64,000 bases of DNA. It comes from Candidatus Heimdallarchaeota archaeon. Lineage in GTDB: Archaea; Asgardarchaeota; Heimdallarchaeia; Heimdallarchaeales; Heimdallarchaeaceae. A program made the translations under genes and the position numbers. Location of the stretch: assembly GCA_019057815.1 (NCBI GenBank), contig JAHLWR010000017.1, positions 12,019-76,018 on the forward strand, given 5' to 3'. A model generated the notes under the pieces. The model was not told the origin of the DNA and did no database searches. It saw only the letters and a program-made list of their open reading frames with translations. How positions within the stretch are numbered: position 1 is the stretch's first letter; the number at the start of each line of letters is the position of its first letter. Below, piece after piece: positions 8,574-25,129 of this stretch.

Positions 8574-15173
<6,600 letters not shown>

Positions 15174-17451: not shown

Positions 17452-19311
17452 ATGAGCAAGACAGATAAATCTGTTTCAAAAATAATGCTATATATATTCA
17501 TCTTAGTGTTAGTAATTTCATCAATCTTTGCAGTAACGATGTTTGGACCCCGTCCTGACACAGAAAGAAGCTTGTTTACATTAACCTTGAGACATTATAC
17601 TAGAGGCTATGAACCACTATATTACAGTGATTATGCCTTGACAATAGTTCAAGATCTTAGAGAGATAGGGATTGATGCAGAAGAAATAGCAATGGACTAT
17701 GCAACATATCTAGAAACTGTTGTAAATGACAGAAACTTCGATTTAGCGATTTTAGAGGTAGAAGGTGAAACAGCTCCACATTTAGAACAATTATTTGGAG
17801 AAAAAGCGTCACTCAACTTGTTTAATTTTGTAAACAAACTTGACGATGGTTTACTTTCAAACCTTACAAAAGAAATATCCATGGAACTAAATTATAATAC
17901 TCGAATTTCTCTTTACCATGACTTACAAGCTCATATAATGAGTAATATTGTCCCCATGGTACCTTTGTTTACTCCAGTAAGATCCTACGCTTTCTGGGAT
18001 AATCTAATGGGTTTCTCAGCGGAGCTTGGACTATCCAACAGCCTGCCTTATATGTCTTTTTCAGGAATTCATGAAGGACAAGAATCTACTGATAATCTGA
18101 AAATTGGTGTTAGTAGATGGTTTACATTAAACCCAATAAGGAGCACATTGAATACTGAAAAACTGTTCCTTTCTTTAATTATGGATAAATTGATTGCAGT
18201 TGATGCTGAAAGCAAAATTTCAAATAATGGATTAATAAATTATTGGGAATATTTGAATGATACAACATTACTCTTACGTTTAAGGCAAAATGTTATCTGG
18301 CAAAACGATGTTGATGAAATATTTACAGATGTACCATTTACATCAAATGATACTGCTTTCACATTAGAATTGTTGAGAGATGTTGCATCCAACCTTAATT
18401 ACGGTATGTACAGCTGGATTAAAGGATATGAAGTTCTTAATTCTACTGATATAAAAATCTACATAGATGGAAACGCTACCACAACTCAAAATGAACCATA
18501 CGCATTTGCTCTAGAAGATTTATCTGTTTATCCCTTACCTGACCATTATTTAAATGTCAGCTCATCGGTAGCAGACGTAGTTCTATCCAGTGAATGGAGC
18601 AAATACAGTAGTAATCCGATTGGTACAGGTAAATATCAAGTAAACTTTGAAGAAGCAGTATCAGAATATTATCTTGAACTTGATAAATTTATAAACTGGC
18701 ACGAAACCGGTGTTTTACCAAGTACTCCTGTGAATTTACAATTCGATAAAATAATGGCAAATACTTATACTGACACCTACTCTTTAGGTCTTGATTTGGA
18801 AGCTGGAATAGTAATTGACTTTGGAGATTTTGGAAGAGATCCATCTTCTATTAAGAATACAATCTCAAGTGATAATATCTTAACTGATTATGCAAAAGAG
18901 AATTCAATTATCTTCCTCGCTTTTAATTTAAACAACCCTAATTTTGGTGGGGAGTTAAATTATGAACCAAGCACTGATGAAGGAATGTCAAAAGCTCTTG
19001 CGATGAGAAAGGCAATTGCTAGTATTATTGATAAAGTAAAAATGAATGGAATTCTTCATAATTCAATTTACAATACTACTGATTCTCCAGTATCTATGTA
19101 TCACACAGATTACTATTATAGTGGAGTTCAAAAGTATCCATATAATATTCAATCCGCTGTGAATTACATAAATCTTGCTGGTCACAACGTTTCTTTACCT
19201 CAGACTACAAATACAACAGAGTCTCCTCTTACTTTTGCATGTTCTGTTATAGCCATTAGTTTTAGCTCTGCAGGAATTACGATAATTATGCGGAAAAAGC
19301 GTAAATATTGA
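17452..19311 (+). CDS. Family 5 (peptide/nickel) ABC solute-binding protein, circularly permuted, membrane anchored
   Basis: LNP, LRQNVIW, FTSND..FT, PIGTGKY, LAFN, MRKAIA..ID and DLREIGI..FDLAIL motifs; N-terminal signal; C-terminal TM plus RKKRK. Confidence 0.85.
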   Translation: MSKTDKSVSKIMLYIFILVLVISSIFAVTMFGPRPDTERSLFTLTLRHYTRGYEPLYYSDYALTIVQDLREIGIDAEEIAMDYATYLETVVNDRNFDLAILEVEGETAPHLEQLFGEKASLNLFNFVNKLDDGLLSNLTKEISMELNYNTRISLYHDLQAHIMSNIVPMVPLFTPVRSYAFWDNLMGFSAELGLSNSLPYMSFSGIHEGQESTDNLKIGVSRWFTLNPIRSTLNTEKLFLSLIMDKLIAVDAESKISNNGLINYWEYLNDTTLLLRLRQNVIWQNDVDEIFTDVPFTSNDTAFTLELLRDVASNLNYGMYSWIKGYEVLNSTDIKIYIDGNATTTQNEPYAFALEDLSVYPLPDHYLNVSSSVADVVLSSEWSKYSSNPIGTGKYQVNFEEAVSEYYLELDKFINWHETGVLPSTPVNLQFDKIMANTYTDTYSLGLDLEAGIVIDFGDFGRDPSSIKNTISSDNILTDYAKENSIIFLAFNLNNPNFGGELNYEPSTDEGMSKALAMRKAIASIIDKVKMNGILHNSIYNTTDSPVSMYHTDYYYSGVQKYPYNIQSAVNYINLAGHNVSLPQTTNTTESPLTFACSVIAISFSSAGITIIMRKKRKY

Positions 19312-19488
19312 GGTTAACTCGACGAATAAAATCGTAGAATTAAGGTATTTTTAATGATTCAAAGTAGAATAGAAGAAAGTACAAAAATTGTAAGAGAAGA
19401 ATCTTTTGAAAAACAAAGGAGAGTCATACGTAAAAGAGCCTTAAAATGAAAATGCATCGAAAATAATGGCTAATATAGGTTAGTAGTA

Positions 19489-19504
19489 GAAAAAAGTTTA
19501 AATA
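19489..19504 (+). promoter_or_regulatory. Putative BRE+TATA for the intergenic RNA
   Basis: GAAAAAAG followed by TTTAAATA, about 25 nt before 19528; no protein gene follows on this strand until 19972. Confidence 0.5.
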
Positions 19505-19527
19505 GTTATCACGTGTAAGCTTTATTT

Positions 19528-19848
19528 GGTGGATAAAGGGATTCAAGAAATATTGAAGCAAGGAAATGTAAACTGAACAGAAGGCTGTGCGAAAGCAATC
19601 CGATACTCACTCTCCTTCCATGGAGCGTGAAGGAACTTGGTTGACATTTTAAATGGTTTGAACCCCTTTTAGGCTTTTGGATAGACCTCCTAAAAGCCGT
19701 AATCCCCAGAACCAAACGAAAGTTTGGAACAGATTTCTAGTTCTAAACCAGAAATCTGTCAGAACCCCCAACCAAAAACTAGGTCAAGAGTGTCGTGTAA
19801 GAAAATCCCCTCTGTTCAGGCATTAATTCCTTGCAAAAAGCACTTTTT
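19528..19848 (+). ncRNA. Candidate structured non-coding RNA of unknown family
   Basis: GC-enriched intergenic segment with many nested helices, two GAAA tetraloops, an upstream TATA and a downstream T-run. Confidence 0.6.
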
Positions 19849-19971
19849 GTGGTTTCATTATCTGTAATTAATTTTTCCGATATTTCCTTCAAATATATTA
19901 ACAAACTTGGAACTATAAGTTTTTAAAGCGGTTTACAACACAAAAAGTAGATATTAACTTAAGGTGATTGC

Positions 19972-20157
19972 ATGGGTCACGGATCGCTTCAAAAGTCAGG
20001 AAAAGTTAGAAAACAAACCCCTAAAGTAACTGCCAAAGAGAGGCATAGTGCCATTCCTAGAAGAAGTCTTCGTAATAAATATGTTAGAAGAGTTCAATTG
20101 GGCAAATATGCTGGTCAACCTTCAAGTATGGGTTCTAAACGCGTTAGAAGCAGATAA
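19972..20157 (+). CDS. rps30e: 30S ribosomal protein eS30
   Basis: HGSLQKSGKVRKQTPKV...PRR..RNKY signature. Confidence 0.96.
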   Translation: MGHGSLQKSGKVRKQTPKVTAKERHSAIPRRSLRNKYVRRVQLGKYAGQPSSMGSKRVRSR

Positions 20158-20188: not shown

Positions 20189-21781
20189 ATGAATGACAGA
20201 GGTCAAGCTCTAATAGAGATTAAAAAACAGCTTATTGTACAAGGAATACAGTCATCAGAAGAGCTTGATAAAATCAAAAGGAAGATATCAAGAAAATATC
20301 ATCTCAAAATCTATCCAAAGAACAGTGAGATTCTTTTCATCTGCAATGATAAGGAAAAAGAACAACTTCTACCTATTCTAATGATAAGAAAAGTAAGAAC
20401 ACTTTCTGGAGTGGCTGTTGTTGCAGCAATGACTCGTCCATGGGAATGCCCTCATGGTAAATGCATTATGTGTCCAGGGGGACCTGAAGAAGGCAAACCT
20501 CAGAGCTACACCGGTTATGAACCTACAGCAATGAGAGGAATAAGAAATAATTATGATCCTTATCTTCAAGTGCAAGATAGAGTTAAGCAACTGGAAGCTA
20601 TAGGACATTCAACGGAAAAAGTTGATGTTATAGTAATGGGAGGAACCTTTACTCATCAACCATCAGATTACCAAGAGTGGTTTATTAAGAGACTATTTGA
20701 TGGTCTTAATGAAGACGATGCAAGTTCTATACTTGAAGCTCATAAGAAAAATGAGACTACAACGCATCGTTGTGTGGGGTTAACTGTGGAAACTCGCCCT
20801 GATCAGATTAATACTGAAACTATAGATAGTCTCTTGAACTACGGAGTTACTAGGTTAGAGATAGGCGTTCAAACTGTTTTTGATGATGTTTTTGAGAAAA
20901 TGAACAGGGGCCATGGTTCAAAAGAAGTGATAAACGCTTTCCAATTAATCAAGGATTCAGGTCTCAAAATAACAGCACATATGATGCCAGGTTTACCTGG
21001 ATCGAATTTAAAAAGAGATTTAGAAGCATTTTATACTCTGTTTAATGATGAAAAATATAAACCAGATGAGATTAAAATTTATCCTACAATGGTTATACTT
21101 GGCACAAAACTATATGAAGATTACAAAAATGGGAGATATGAGCCTTTAACAAATGAGAATACTGCTTCATTAATATCAGAAATTAAAAAACTTGTACCTC
21201 CTTATGTTAGAATAAAACGTGTACTGAGAGATATTCCAGCTCACCAAATCGCAGCTGGTCCAAATAAAAGTGATTTAAGACTTGATGCACAGCGAATTTT
21301 GCATCAAGAAGGGAAAAAATGTCGTTGTATACGTTGTAGAGAAATAGGGCATTATTTATACAAAGAAAAGGGTGATTTTGATGCTTCTAGTATAGCTTAT
21401 GTCCACAGAAGTTATGCTGCAAGTGGTGGTAGGGAACATTTCTTATCATTTGAAGAAGTTAAAAATGATGTTTTGATTGGTTTCTTAAGGTTAAGAGAAC
21501 TGAGTCAAGATTTATTTAGACTTGAGTTTCAGCATGTTTCAACAATTCTAGTTAGAGAACTCCATATATATGGTGAATCACTTGCTATAAAATCGAAAGT
21601 AAAAGCAGACATTCAGTGGCAACATCGTGGATATGGTCGAGAGCTCCTTATAAAAGCAGAGGAAGTTGGGAAAGAAAAAGGATACTCCAAGATAGCCGTT
21701 ATATCAGGAATAGGTGCAAGAGAGTATTATCGGAAATTTGGTTATTCACTAGATGGATCTTATATGTCGAAGAAACTCTGA
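20189..21781 (+). CDS. elp3: tRNA U34 acetyltransferase Elp3 (radical SAM + KAT)
   Basis: RTLSGVAVVA, CPHGKCIMCPGG, QSYTGYEP, ETRPD, CRCIRCRE, RELHIYG, QHRGYG, ISGIGAREYY. Start set at ATG 20189 to avoid overlap with eS30. Confidence 0.97.
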   Translation: MNDRGQALIEIKKQLIVQGIQSSEELDKIKRKISRKYHLKIYPKNSEILFICNDKEKEQLLPILMIRKVRTLSGVAVVAAMTRPWECPHGKCIMCPGGPEEGKPQSYTGYEPTAMRGIRNNYDPYLQVQDRVKQLEAIGHSTEKVDVIVMGGTFTHQPSDYQEWFIKRLFDGLNEDDASSILEAHKKNETTTHRCVGLTVETRPDQINTETIDSLLNYGVTRLEIGVQTVFDDVFEKMNRGHGSKEVINAFQLIKDSGLKITAHMMPGLPGSNLKRDLEAFYTLFNDEKYKPDEIKIYPTMVILGTKLYEDYKNGRYEPLTNENTASLISEIKKLVPPYVRIKRVLRDIPAHQIAAGPNKSDLRLDAQRILHQEGKKCRCIRCREIGHYLYKEKGDFDASSIAYVHRSYAASGGREHFLSFEEVKNDVLIGFLRLRELSQDLFRLEFQHVSTILVRELHIYGESLAIKSKVKADIQWQHRGYGRELLIKAEEVGKEKGYSKIAVISGIGAREYYRKFGYSLDGSYMSKKL

Positions 21782-22053
21782 AAGGATAAACATGGTAAAG
21801 ATTTAAGCGTTCTATTATCTTTGTTTGTTGTTTAAATCTTATATGTTTGTAGATAATGCTTCTATTAATGGACAAATATCATTCTATTGGTATTTTTATT
21901 TCAAATTTACTACCATTTTTCCAAAAATTCAAAAGTAGGTTGCCTGCGATTTGTGATTCAATAAAAAACTAAGGTTCTAGAATGTGACTGTACCTTAGAA
22001 TTTATATTTGTTCAAATCATAAATTAATTAAGCGATTACATCAAGGTGACACT

Positions 22054-23052
22054 GTGTCCAAAAAGACGAGTCAGGAACTCTTAAAACTTGTTAGCCTTAA
22101 ATTACGTCTTAACCATTTTCAAACAGTCAACCTTTCGTCTAGTAGTAAAGCTTGTTTTGATATTATAGCAAAGAAAGGAAATCGCACAATTATTCTGAAA
22201 ATAGAACCTTATGTTGATAATTTTAATAGAGAAAAATCGTATGAATTAAAGAGCATAGCGCAATTCCTAGAGGCTTCTCCTATTATTGTTGGAACAAGAG
22301 GTCGGCGATTCAAAAATATAGATGAAGGACTAGTCCTTCTACGATACGGTATACCCGTTGTGAGCCCCGAAACTCTTGAATCTTTAATAGCTGAAGGGAT
22401 ACCACCAATCGTATATTGTAGCAGAGGTGGATATTTCGTGAATATTGATCGAAAACTTTTACGCAGAGCAAGAATGGAGAAGAACTATAGTTATACTGAG
22501 CTTGCTCATTTGGTTGGAGTAGCTAGAAGTACTGTTTACGAATATGAACACAATATAAATCCCCCTCCTGAAATAGCTGCTAGGTTGGAAAACGTTCTAA
22601 AAACCTCGATAGCTGAAGGGATTCCCATATTTGAAATAGAAATACAAAACGAAGAAAAACCAGAATCTTATCTGTCAGGTAATCTATCACCGTTCAAAGA
22701 GGAAATAGCTTCTCTTTTAGAGAATTTGGGTGTAATTTCACAGTTTTGGACACATCAATCTCCTTTTGATGCATTCGGAGAACATCAAAGTGACCAAGTT
22801 AAGAGTGGTTTGAATGTTCTAGTATGTGTAGATGATTCTCATCATAGCAATGTGATAAAAAGAATTAATACAACTGTCAACATAGCATCGTTGGCAAAAA
22901 GAAGGGCTATAATGATAGTAGATGAAGAACAAGACAATCAGATTTCACAAAAAATGCCTACTTTCACGTTGGATGAACTACAACAAATGCAAAGGGCATT
23001 TGAACTTGTAAAAAAATGGGCAAAAAAGCAAAAAGAATTGAAGTTTACATGA
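22054..23052 (+). CDS. Archaeal Cro/C1-HTH transcriptional regulator (COG1395-like)
   Basis: FDIIAKK, RYGIPVVS.ETL, RGGYFVNID, HTH ELAHLVGVARSTVYEYE, SPFDA. Confidence 0.85.
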   Translation: MSKKTSQELLKLVSLKLRLNHFQTVNLSSSSKACFDIIAKKGNRTIILKIEPYVDNFNREKSYELKSIAQFLEASPIIVGTRGRRFKNIDEGLVLLRYGIPVVSPETLESLIAEGIPPIVYCSRGGYFVNIDRKLLRRARMEKNYSYTELAHLVGVARSTVYEYEHNINPPPEIAARLENVLKTSIAEGIPIFEIEIQNEEKPESYLSGNLSPFKEEIASLLENLGVISQFWTHQSPFDAFGEHQSDQVKSGLNVLVCVDDSHHSNVIKRINTTVNIASLAKRRAIMIVDEEQDNQISQKMPTFTLDELQQMQRAFELVKKWAKKQKELKFT

Positions 23053-23078
23053 GCTAGATTTGTTCTAGATTTTTGCCT

Positions 23079-23762
23079 CTACTTTTGTCCAACTATCATA
23101 ACATGATCTTTCTCAAAAGATTCAAGGTCAATTGTCTCTAAGATTGTTAATCCAAAAGATTTCAATTGTTCTTCAACTTCTTTGTAAATAAGCTTTGGTT
23201 CTTTTGTGACGTCAATACTCCTTGCCTTTACAGCTATGAAAAAGTATCCGTCTTTTTTGAGAAAAGCTTTGATGTTTGTATTCAGTATCTCTGCTTGAGT
23301 AGGTTGAGCCACATCTTCATAAAGGATATCAACCATAGGGACAGTAAAACTATAACCTTCTGGGAAGCGTGCATCAGCATGTATTGGAATAATGTTTTTT
23401 CTTCTTTCTGCTATATTTATCAAGTCACTAACTGATCTTGAAGAAAATTCTACTGCATAAATTACACCATCTTCACCAATCATATCTGAAACATGTGATA
23501 CTGTTGTTCCTGAAGCTGCTCCAAGATATAAAATTGAACATCCTTTGGAAAATGGGTATGTTTTCATGTTATTACGTATCGCAGCAGCAAGTTTACTTTT
23601 AAAGGGGTCAAAAGTTCTGTATTCTTTTTCATCAATTTTAATTAGGCGTTCAGTATAGACTTGATATCCTGGATCTGCATTTAAAGTAGCTAAACGAACA
23701 TTTCCATCTCTCAACGTGATCCAAAATAAATCGTTATGTTCATGGTTTTTTAATTCAAACAT
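23079..23762 (-). CDS. flpA: Fibrillarin (box C/D 2'-O-methyltransferase)
   Basis: SKLAAAI, LYLGAASGTTVSHVSD, YAVEFS, DVAQPTQA, KARSID. ATG at 23762; alternative TTG at 23771. Confidence 0.97.
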   Translation of the reverse strand: MFELKNHEHNDLFWITLRDGNVRLATLNADPGYQVYTERLIKIDEKEYRTFDPFKSKLAAAIRNNMKTYPFSKGCSILYLGAASGTTVSHVSDMIGEDGVIYAVEFSSRSVSDLINIAERRKNIIPIHADARFPEGYSFTVPMVDILYEDVAQPTQAEILNTNIKAFLKKDGYFFIAVKARSIDVTKEPKLIYKEVEEQLKSFGLTILETIDLESFEKDHVMIVGQK

Positions 23763-23767
23763 TCTTA

Positions 23768-25129
23768 TCAATTACTCCTCTGCTTTTTCTTTGGCGATTC
23801 CGTTCTCTTTTTATTATATCTTGGTTTTCCTTTAGTGTATCTTGGTTTTCCTTTGCTGTATCTTGGTTTTCCTTTATCGTGCCCAGATCTAGGTTTGCTG
23901 TATCCAGATCTTGGTCTGCGGTCACTAGATGGTTTAAAATCATATTTGATAGGTTCTTTCTTGCCTTCAGGAGGATTTTCATATTTTTTCTGAATTTCTT
24001 CGATTTTGCGTTCTAAATCCTTGCGTAGTTGATCTCCAACAAATTCACCATGAAATGCGTCTACACGAGCTGCTATAGTCAATCTCCCTGCAATAGCCCG
24101 AGCTATGTTTCCTCTCTGCCACCATGGACAACTGTGTAATTCAGGAATTTGATAAATGATTCCATGTTTAGGTGGTTTTGCACCTGATTTTAAAGATCGG
24201 AAAAGAGCTTTTTCCGCTCCGAGAAGCTGAACTGTACTTGCTGGTAACATTGCCATTTCTCTTAACCCTCCTGCAAGTGCAATCAAACGTGCAGATATTG
24301 ATGATCCTGCAACTGCTTGCAGATTGGGCGCTACTCGCATTAATTCTCTTTCAATCCACGCTTCTAATCTCTCCCTCTCCTCATACAAATCAAGATTTCT
24401 TGATGCGAATTGTCGAAGTGGAAGTAAATCTTCAAAAGAATAATCAGCTCCCATTGAACTTTTAGCTTTTTCTGCGATTTCAGCACTTTTTTGGGAACTA
24501 AAACCAAATTTCTGGAGTTTTTCTGCAGTAAAATCACTTCTCGAACCAATCTCTGTTATTATTTTACAGAGAGTAACATGATTCTCAATAATCTTCAGAA
24601 TTTCAGGAAAGTGAGTTCCATACCACTCTCGGATTCTTGAAACAAATAAGTTAGCAGTCTTGTCAATGTCATCCATCGATAATATCGCATGAACTACCAT
24701 TTTGTCTACACGTTGAGAACTGTGAGCAACTTTCTTTTTTGAAAGAATGATACCCACTTCTCGGACAAGTTCTACATACTCTCTTATATTAGAAATATAA
24801 TTATCTTCAATCAAAATACCAGTAAGATTTTCTTTAAATTGAGTATAAACCTCTGATTCTAAATTTAATTCGCATTTTTTTCCAACTGAACGTCCAAAAT
24901 GAAGAATATCGTTGCTATTAGTGATTATTTTTTCTATTTCAATTTCATTTAATAATCCTTGAAGCTCTTCAGAATTGTTGTACAAAGTTAAATTGTGTAT
25001 TTTTTGTGCTATTTCGTTAGCATTCTTCGGATAAAGTTTCTTAGCAATAAGATTATCATCAACATCATAAATGAAAAATCCAGTAATATCTGAAAATATC
25101 TTAACTGTCATAAGTCTCTCAGAACTCAT
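23768..25129 (-). CDS. nop5: Box C/D RNP protein Nop5 (Nop56/58)
   Basis: REWYG.HFPE, APNL, PASTVQLLGAEKALF, PPKHGIIYQ, RG.IAR, AARVD. Confidence 0.97.
   Translation of the reverse strand: MSSERLMTVKIFSDITGFFIYDVDDNLIAKKLYPKNANEIAQKIHNLTLYNNSEELQGLLNEIEIEKIITNSNDILHFGRSVGKKCELNLESEVYTQFKENLTGILIEDNYISNIREYVELVREVGIILSKKKVAHSSQRVDKMVVHAILSMDDIDKTANLFVSRIREWYGTHFPEILKIIENHVTLCKIITEIGSRSDFTAEKLQKFGFSSQKSAEIAEKAKSSMGADYSFEDLLPLRQFASRNLDLYEERERLEAWIERELMRVAPNLQAVAGSSISARLIALAGGLREMAMLPASTVQLLGAEKALFRSLKSGAKPPKHGIIYQIPELHSCPWWQRGNIARAIAGRLTIAARVDAFHGEFVGDQLRKDLERKIEEIQKKYENPPEGKKEPIKYDFKPSSDRRPRSGYSKPRSGHDKGKPRYSKGKPRYTKGKPRYNKKRTESPKKKQRSN
23817..23920 (-). repeat. 21-nt tandem repeats encoding (KGKPRY-x)n in the Nop5 C-tail
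   Basis: TATCTTGGTTTTCCTTT (+ strand) at 23817, 23838 and 23859, plus two related PRSG units. Confidence 0.9.

Follow-up and report, generated by a model that had tools for sequence, protein, structure and literature searches.

What kind of gene, if any, lies in the gap between the SBP_bac_5 protein (17452-19311) and the genes for eS30 (19972-20157) and Elp3 (ending at 21781) in the window, the 64,000-nucleotide stretch of Heimdallarchaeaceae DNA analysed here? The source genome (G000) comprises 3.7 Mb in 48 contigs; the public locus nearest to its Elp3 (97% identity) is from a metagenome-assembled 'Candidatus Heimdallarchaeota' genome. G+C over the element is 0.40-0.43, compared with about 0.28-0.35 in most adjacent intervals, and an earlier note, made from the letters of the DNA, had proposed a novel structured non-coding RNA (ncRNA) with its own promoter, or a very divergent SRP-like RNA. 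No archaea known are more closely related to eukaryotes than the Heimdallarchaeia, and to our knowledge almost nothing is known about their ncRNAs.

A genome-wide search found one copy of the element in G000. Using blastn, a 94% identical copy was found in the same genus, together with partial matches of 68-78% identity in a sister genus (g3), where 17 of the 19 genomes had them. Searches with a covariance model built on the central 130 nt (model R1) recovered a single copy from each g1 and g3 genome, and from g5 a shorter one; the g2 copy was located by its synteny with a PAC2-family gene, and the g4 copies, in two closed genomes, by the signature GACCTCCT-N7-22-CCCCAGAA. The gene is therefore present in all five genera (g1-g5) of the family. 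Absence by model R1 alone is not evidence, because R1 missed the g2 copy and scored that of g4 at only 22.5 bits. When the signature was run against 400 Asgard genomes, the 370 outside the family returned scattered matches only, judged chance-like from their scatter, and a pattern for the 3' half, run against 83 genomes of the class, also returned only scattered matches outside the family. Four of the 3'-half matches were inspected: three were chance occurrences in coding sequence and one was a degenerate cassette copy in a g3 genome (G013). A metagenome scan produced 120 chance matches, and screening the 80 listed loci with model R1 gave no match. Among the genomes searched, the RNA is confined to one family of Heimdallarchaeia (Asgard). 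The earlier note had named many dispersed copies as the mark of a MITE; a MITE or other dispersed repeat is ruled out by the single copy in G000 and by one copy per genome in the relatives.

The alignment of homologues consists of a strongly conserved core with hairpins inserted at lineage-specific places. For the covariation analysis, 16 sequences from four genera and 45 base pairs were used. In these homologues 93.1% of the cells are paired, compared with 36-51% when the partners are slid, and 20 of the 45 pairs change on both sides, a number reached by none of 500 shuffles. The conserved fold that the earlier note had suggested checking by covariation is thus borne out by compensatory changes.

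The features of the gene are collected in Table 1. The helices and hairpins described previously are all present in the sequence, most of them at the coordinates first assigned, and so are the four C-rich motifs (19660-66, 19701-07, 19762-69 and 19802-10), the TATA box and the T5 run. Two helices are given here in a shorter form. The core of AATGT/GCATT holds as ATGT 19566-69 / GCAT 19820-23, with the flanking AAA and TAA forming bulges. The TTGGTTG/CAACCAA helix is complementary as GGTTG/CAACC, a pairing beyond the reach of the covariation test because it is invariant in g1 and g3; for the closure of the central domain RNAalifold also offered an alternative pairing to another AACC. On the DNA, the strands of the inner helix are CTGAACAGAAGG (19573-84) and CCCTCTGTTCAG (19808-19), with one A.C mismatch, and those of helix P2 are CGATACTC (19601-08) and GAGTGTCG (19788-95). 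In g4, which is outside the covariation alignment, the inner helix reads CCAGAUAGGAAG/CUUCCUAUCUGG, with four further double changes. The stem of hairpin H1 is GGCUUUUGG/CUAAAAGCC in g1, GGGCUUAG/CUAAGCCU in g3 and CAGACUU/AAGUCUG in g2; GACCUCCU within H1 is invariant in all five genera while the stem changes completely. Hairpin H2 shows double changes to CCAGAC/GUCUGG in g3, CCAGCA/UGCUGG in YT1_002 and AUCAGA/UCUGAU in G021.

Table 1. Features of the RNA gene (window coordinates) and cassette arrays at its 3' end in genus g3 (genome:contig coordinates)
Feature	Position	Strand	Remarks
BRE/TATA promoter AGAAAAAAG TTTAAATA	19488-19504	+	TTTAAATA at 19497-19504, read from sequence
5' leader (5' exon)	19528-19571	+	includes hairpin TTCAA/TTGAA 19542-19557; removed from mature RNA
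BHB outer helix h, 5' strand GCAAGGAA	19558-19565	+	pairs with TTCCTTGC 19827-19834; 7 of 8 pairs double-changed across genera
BHB central 4-bp helix H, 5' strand AUGU	19566-19569	+	pairs with GCAU 19820-19823; 100% of cells paired
5' bulge AAA, 3 nt	19570-19572	+	holds 5' cut site; AAA in every homologue; back-joint at 19571/19572
Inner helix h', 5' strand CUGAACAGAAGG	19573-19584	+	pairs with 19808-19819; 99% paired, 4 pairs double-changed
Hairpin UGC-GAAA-GCA	19588-19597	+	GCGAAAGC hairpin in g1, g2, g5; absent in g3
Helix P2, 5' strand CGAUACUC	19601-19608	+	pairs with GAGUGUCG 19788-19795; 97.5% paired, 4 of 8 pairs double-changed
Hairpin CUCC/GGAG	19612-19625	+	CCC..GGG at the same place in g3; missing in one g3 subgroup
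GGUUG, closing central domain	19639-19643	+	proposed partner CAACC 19769-19773; complementary
C-rich motif GAACCCC, then U-run	19660-19666	+	conserved in all genera
Hairpin H1	19672-19698	+	loop and 3' stem carry ACCUCCUA (19685-19692); stem varies, complementarity kept
Single strand AAUCCCCAGAA	19701-19711	+	CCCCAGAA invariant in five genera; mostly unpaired in circular MFE folds
Hairpin H2, CCAAAC-GAAA-GUUUGG	19712-19727	+	read from sequence; lacking in g5
Hairpin H3, ACAGAUUUCU/AGAAAUCUGU	19729-19759	+	homologous g3 hairpin CAGAC/GUCUG, duplicated in one subgroup
Single strand CAGAACCCCC	19760-19769	+	conserved in g1-g4; unpaired in MFE folds
3' bulge UAA, 3 nt	19824-19826	+	holds 3' cut site; back-joint leaves from 19824
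3' trailer (3' exon)	19825-19848	+	outer-helix 3' strand 19827-19834 and terminator T5 19844-19848; 0 RNA contigs
Mature circular RNA, 254 nt	19572-19825	+	junction ambiguous by up to 2 nt: 19571-19824, 19572-19825 or 19573-19826
Array L190	G012:C1:619000-638900		copies at 1769, 4477, 5271, 7599, 8397, 9154, 17928
Array L191	G021:C94:40500-48300	-	

The plus strand of 19528-19848 folds with -92.3 kcal/mol (z = -4.35 against shuffles), and the minus strand folds as stably (z = -4.72 against shuffles); energy alone therefore does not pick the strand. Transcription of the plus strand is supported by the promoter, which is conserved in its spacing, by the T-run, by the G-U pairs (one of them inside H) and by the ill-conserved leader and trailer; the earlier reading of a plus-strand gene with a promoter of its own holds. 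A AAAAAAGTTTAAATA-like box lies at a constant distance from the RNA in 16 of 16 aligned homologues and is present also in g2, g4 and g5, and every homologue inspected (g1, g2, g3, g4 and g5) has its own TATA box. The transcript start at 19528 is a prediction from TATA spacing. The leader sequence shows little conservation between genera, and no RNA contigs cover it in four runs.

The bulges AAA and TAA had been taken for plain interruptions of a rod. Instead, they form a canonical bulge-helix-bulge (BHB) motif around ATGT/GCAT, which spans 19558-19584 with 19808-19834 in the layout h-B3-H4-B3-h'. Its 5' strand reads GCAAGGAA-AUGU-AAA-CUGAACAG and its 3' strand CUGUUCAG-GCAU-UAA-UUCCUUGC. The register and both 3-nt bulges are retained in g1-g5, the 3' bulge having three nucleotides in every homologue (AAA, UAA or AAC). 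Helix H changes with its pairing kept (AUGU/GCAU in g1, CUGC/GCAG in g2 and g3, CUAC/GUAG in g5, GUGU/GCAC in g4), so that the motif characteristic of archaeal EndA/RtcB circular RNAs is present, with both H and h' showing double changes that preserve pairing. The enzymes of this pathway, the splicing endonuclease and the RtcB ligase, are both encoded in G000: the EndA family (PF01974) is represented by two genes (98.2 and 48.7 bits) and RtcB (PF01139) by a match of 458.6 bits. The RtcB matches are split within a single 1015-aa frame (G000:C38:129362-132214, minus strand), with model positions 1-50 and 49-426 lying ~1.5 kb apart, which suggests that this gene may hold an intein or other large insertion.

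Words of the stretch are shared by 14 metatranscriptome runs of studies on marine sediment, cold seeps and vents, and the assembled contigs of four runs from four studies were compared with it. In all four, contig coverage is limited to 19571/2-19824, and leader and trailer are uncovered. A 3'-5' joint linking both bulges was found in three runs, in contigs rather than raw reads: the back-joint runs from 19824 to 19571 in X4 (depth 3) and X7 (depth 438), and from 19824 to 19572 in X1. The exact cuts are not fixed by these joints, because two letters can be assigned to either side. A length of 285 nt, or 254 + 31, was seen in two contigs; it would be expected if a 254-nt circle were assembled with 31-letter words, a word length assumed from the 31-letter index. 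The three bulge nucleotides retained in the ring are the expectation for symmetric BHB cleavage followed by ligation. Given the coverage between the bulges and the back-joints, the product is a 254-nt circular RNA. The transcript that the earlier note had suggested looking for in metatranscriptomes was thus found, though not at the ~310 nt proposed for it. The contigs match the allele of a sister species, with an AA insertion after 19699, not the G000 sequence, and therefore show the RNA of the family in the environment rather than that of the exact strain. Strand, ends, level and the share of linear forms cannot be read from contigs; with depth 438 in a metatranscriptome of 81 million letters the ring is evidently abundant in sea-floor RNA, though the contigs do not show its level.

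Taken together, we regard 19488-19848 (+), promoter included, as a stand-alone gene whose circular ncRNA product belongs to a new family and is processed through a BHB motif, a reading to which we assign a probability of about 0.85. The BRE/TATA promoter and the T-run frame a primary transcript of ~320 nt, whose two ends pair into the BHB. By analogy with established archaeal biochemistry, EndA would cut once in each bulge and RtcB would join the cut ends into a ring, with the ill-conserved leader and trailer as probable by-products.

Four other explanations were weighed. A degenerate intron-bearing tRNA-like gene or relic, in which splicing would make the leader-trailer RNA the functional product and leave the ring as a giant excised intron, is highly improbable. 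It draws on the 7-nt loop that would close the outer helix after splicing, which reads N-U-N-N-A-A-A and has an invariant U in the place of U33; however, such a loop follows from BHB geometry alone (4 + 2 + 1 nucleotides). The 'anticodon' varies (GUA, GCA, ACA), ARAGORN finds no tRNA in 19300-20000, and the T-run begins ~20 nt into the trailer, the 3' exon being ~23 nt before it, which leaves no space for a T arm; cloverleaf exons, the hallmark of an intron-bearing tRNA gene, were thus not found. In addition, conservation is lowest in the exons and highest in the ring, which is also the only part that the RNA contigs contain. The ring may descend from a tRNA intron, which would be compatible with a gene for a circular RNA.

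The second explanation is a linear structured ncRNA of ~310 nt, perhaps very divergent and SRP-like, in which the bulges would be ordinary helix imperfections. The rod with three distal hairpins does loosely recall SRP RNA, and the contigs are compatible with some linear molecules, but they end exactly at both bulges and carry the back-joint in three studies, and leader and trailer are ill conserved. Rfam gave nothing relevant to the element at gathering score in the whole window and no local match at E<=10 in 19300-20000, in agreement with the novelty claimed for the RNA. In that interval the Archaea_SRP model (RF01857), which includes the helix 8 and helix 6 motifs, had no match, and neither did the RNase P model (RF00373; CR-I to CR-V, P4) at the element. 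As the earlier note had anticipated, the canonical RNAs are found elsewhere in G000: a full-length SRP RNA at C43:220804-221110 (90.5 bits, E 8e-21) and an RNase P RNA at C42:2095-2419 (149.5 bits). Because both are accounted for elsewhere, the element is not SRP or RNase P RNA, and the suggestion of a very divergent SRP-like RNA is not upheld. A linear ncRNA is largely refuted already, and we give it a very small chance.

The third is a circularly permuted gene for a known RNA, whose joined ends would restore a known fold. Such BHB-framed permuted RNA genes exist (PMC4731332), and ordinary covariance-model scans overlook permuted genes. However, neither half of the element matches Rfam locally at E<=10 with permissive filters. 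Since a long covarying helix has the two ends of the ring at its tip, joining them only adds a loop and restores no interrupted helix; moreover, SRP and RNase P RNAs are accounted for, and 254 nt is far from the size of 5S RNA. We consider a permuted gene scarcely credible.

A cis-acting leader or riboswitch-like element controlling eS30-elp3, which directly follows the RNA gene in g1, g2 and g4, is the least credible of all, as the RNA gene has its own T-run, a separate TATA-like box precedes eS30, the product is excised as a ring, and in g3 the downstream neighbour varies: there the RNA gene and eS30 are from 0.5 to more than 16 kb apart, with other genes, some of them on the opposite strand, in between.

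Because these inserted genes part the two in g3, the RNA gene is not the leader of eS30-elp3. Its position upstream of these genes, stressed in the earlier note, holds as a conserved neighbourhood and is not a regulatory link: the fixed 5' UTR position and co-transcription typical of a cis-regulatory leader are not what is found. A PAC2-family gene lies directly upstream of the RNA gene in g2, g3 and g5, and the ancestral gene order was likely SBP - PAC2 - RNA - eS30 - Elp3. An obligate partnership with the PAC2-family gene was rejected, no ortholog having been found in g1 or g4. In the window, the gap occupied by this gene in other genera contains a 31-codon open reading frame (19355-19450, +). 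Further upstream, a 2199-aa open reading frame (8574-15173, +) has no Pfam domain at E<=0.01.

The biogenesis route, that of archaeal BHB/EndA/RtcB processing, is already known, while the RNA family is new. The closest precedent for a gene of this kind is the SRP RNA of Thermoproteus tenax, which is encoded by a permuted gene, cut at a BHB-type motif by the tRNA-splicing endonuclease and ligated to a stable functional circle that was detected through its junction by RNA sequencing (Plagens et al. 2015, eLife, PMC4731332). Like the Heimdall gene, for which cutting and ligation are predicted, it is a stand-alone ncRNA gene whose product is a circle. Circularization restores the SRP fold in Thermoproteus, whereas the Heimdall ring matches no known family, is not visibly permuted, and coexists with a normal SRP RNA encoded elsewhere. 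Circular pre-16S and pre-23S rRNAs and excised tRNA introns of archaea follow the same BHB/EndA/RtcB pathway (PMC12918454, PMC7038931). They have in common with the Heimdall ring the two 3-nt bulges around a 4-bp helix and the long processing stem formed from the ends, presumably also the enzymes. However, those circles are intermediates or by-products, while the Heimdall ring is itself the conserved part, with its own promoter and no rRNA or tRNA attached. Published work on Asgard circular rRNA and tRNA introns makes no mention of it. Beside the Thermoproteus SRP RNA, the ring would give archaea another kind of functional circular RNA with a stand-alone gene, and one that is no rearranged copy of a known RNA. 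It also means that genome annotation of Heimdall archaea overlooks an abundant RNA. Four features offer testable hooks: the defined junction, the invariant motif resembling the 16S 3' end, the conserved C-rich single strands and the cassette-attracting gene end.

The motif ACCUCCUA in hairpin H1, invariant in five genera, is identical to the 3' end of the G000 16S rRNA, which reads GGAUCACCUCCUACG. Half of it is inside the hairpin stem, and it is without the UCAC part of the anti-Shine-Dalgarno sequence, the partner of the genome's commonest Shine-Dalgarno sequence (GGUGA). In circular MFE folds from four genera, most C-rich segments are unpaired; for GAACCCC at 19660-66, the MFE fold shows pairing in the G000 circle and full or partial single-strandedness in other genera. 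We hypothesize, as a weak best guess that is more doubtful than probable, that the ring resists nucleases and acts in translation or ribosome biogenesis as a scaffold or decoy. On its surface it would display C-rich single strands (CAGAACCCC, CCCCAGAA) and a hairpin with ACCUCCUA, the copy of the 16S 3' end, and these sites would bind protein or G-rich, Shine-Dalgarno-like RNA. Hints in this direction are the motif shared with the 16S 3' end, the use of Shine-Dalgarno sites by the genome and the conserved neighbourhood with eS30-elp3.

Several more specific functions were considered and rejected. Upstream of start codons in G000, Shine-Dalgarno sequences are enriched (GGTGA 6.6-fold, GAGGT 4.9-fold, GGAGG 3.9-fold). 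The complements of the CCCC motifs (GGGGT, GGGTT, GGGGG) show no enrichment there, and the idea that these motifs act as a Shine-Dalgarno sponge was dropped. Exact or one-mismatch complements of the four conserved single strands occur only at the gene itself or at patternless sites, and no extended antisense target was found in the genome. As for an rRNA guide, the duplex energies of five segments against 16S and 23S rRNA fall within those of shuffles; one interrupted duplex reached z -3.3, unconvincing after ten tests. A telomerase template, brought to mind by the CAACCCC-like words, was rejected as there are no G-rich tandem repeats anywhere in the genome. The C-rich RsaE/RoxS-type sRNAs of Firmicutes ('UCCC/CCCC-motif' sRNAs) are short linear RNAs that pair with Shine-Dalgarno sequences. 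The likeness of the Heimdall ring to them is a resemblance only, consisting of unpaired C-rich motifs on a structured RNA and one CCUCC-containing loop; for the ring, the G-rich complements are not enriched at starts and no target was found.

The rRNA genes of G000 showed two further peculiarities. In the 16S rRNA (G000:C23; L196 1460-1510, minus strand), helix 45 is separated from the terminal GGAUCACCUCCU by an extra hairpin of ~31 nt (AUACAUGAGUAGAAACUUAUGUAU...), possibly an expansion or a mini-intron beside the anti-Shine-Dalgarno tail. The 16S and 23S genes lie back to back on opposite strands (G000:C23:18421-19894, minus, and 20801-24175, plus), and therefore have no shared precursor.

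In the sister genus g3, the terminal ~65 nt of the RNA gene are found again downstream of it, in the same orientation and without the 5' half. The recurring segment comprises the 3' strands of the helices P2 and h' together with the 3' half of the BHB, a small hairpin and the T-run. G012 has six further copies in a span of 16 kb and G021 has three, and five other genomes have one or two each; the repeated ends match the version of the RNA gene end in their own genome. The segments between copies measure 0.75-8.8 kb and encode NosD/beta-helix proteins as well as paralogous proteins of ~215-260 aa that are secreted or anchored in the membrane. Pfam revealed no integrase in the 18 proteins scanned from or beside the cassettes, and G000 has no copies of the 3' end. 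The arrays look as if cassettes had been inserted serially, or amplified in tandem, at the 3' end of the RNA gene, which is a hot spot of DNA insertion in this genus. As at tRNA and tmRNA integration targets, the 3' part of the RNA gene is duplicated behind each insert; in contrast to those, the inserts are short, carry surface-protein genes and have no recognisable integrase, and are more like integron cassettes.

A bolder and unlikely proposal combines these observations. The ring of Heimdallarchaeaceae might be a long-lived mimic of the 16S 3' end (ACCUCCUA) with C-rich flanks, which would titrate Shine-Dalgarno-bearing mRNAs or factors of the 16S 3' end (Nob1/Dim2-type, KH-domain) and so tune ribosome maturation or initiation, while the 3' end of its gene might serve as an integron-like docking site for surface-protein cassettes without a cassette-borne integrase.

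Two other observations were made at the g3 loci. A conserved motif, TTTTTGTCG-N5-TTTTA(G/A)(C/G)C, which is absent in G000, occurs about 35-50 nt ahead of the RNA gene's TATA box (L110-L128), between the PAC2-family gene and the RNA promoter, and could be a regulator site or the terminator of the PAC2-family gene. In one genome (G014), the insert between the RNA gene and eS30 contains an IS605-type TnpB (OrfB_IS605 and Cas12f1-like TNB; L119 4906-6183, plus strand).
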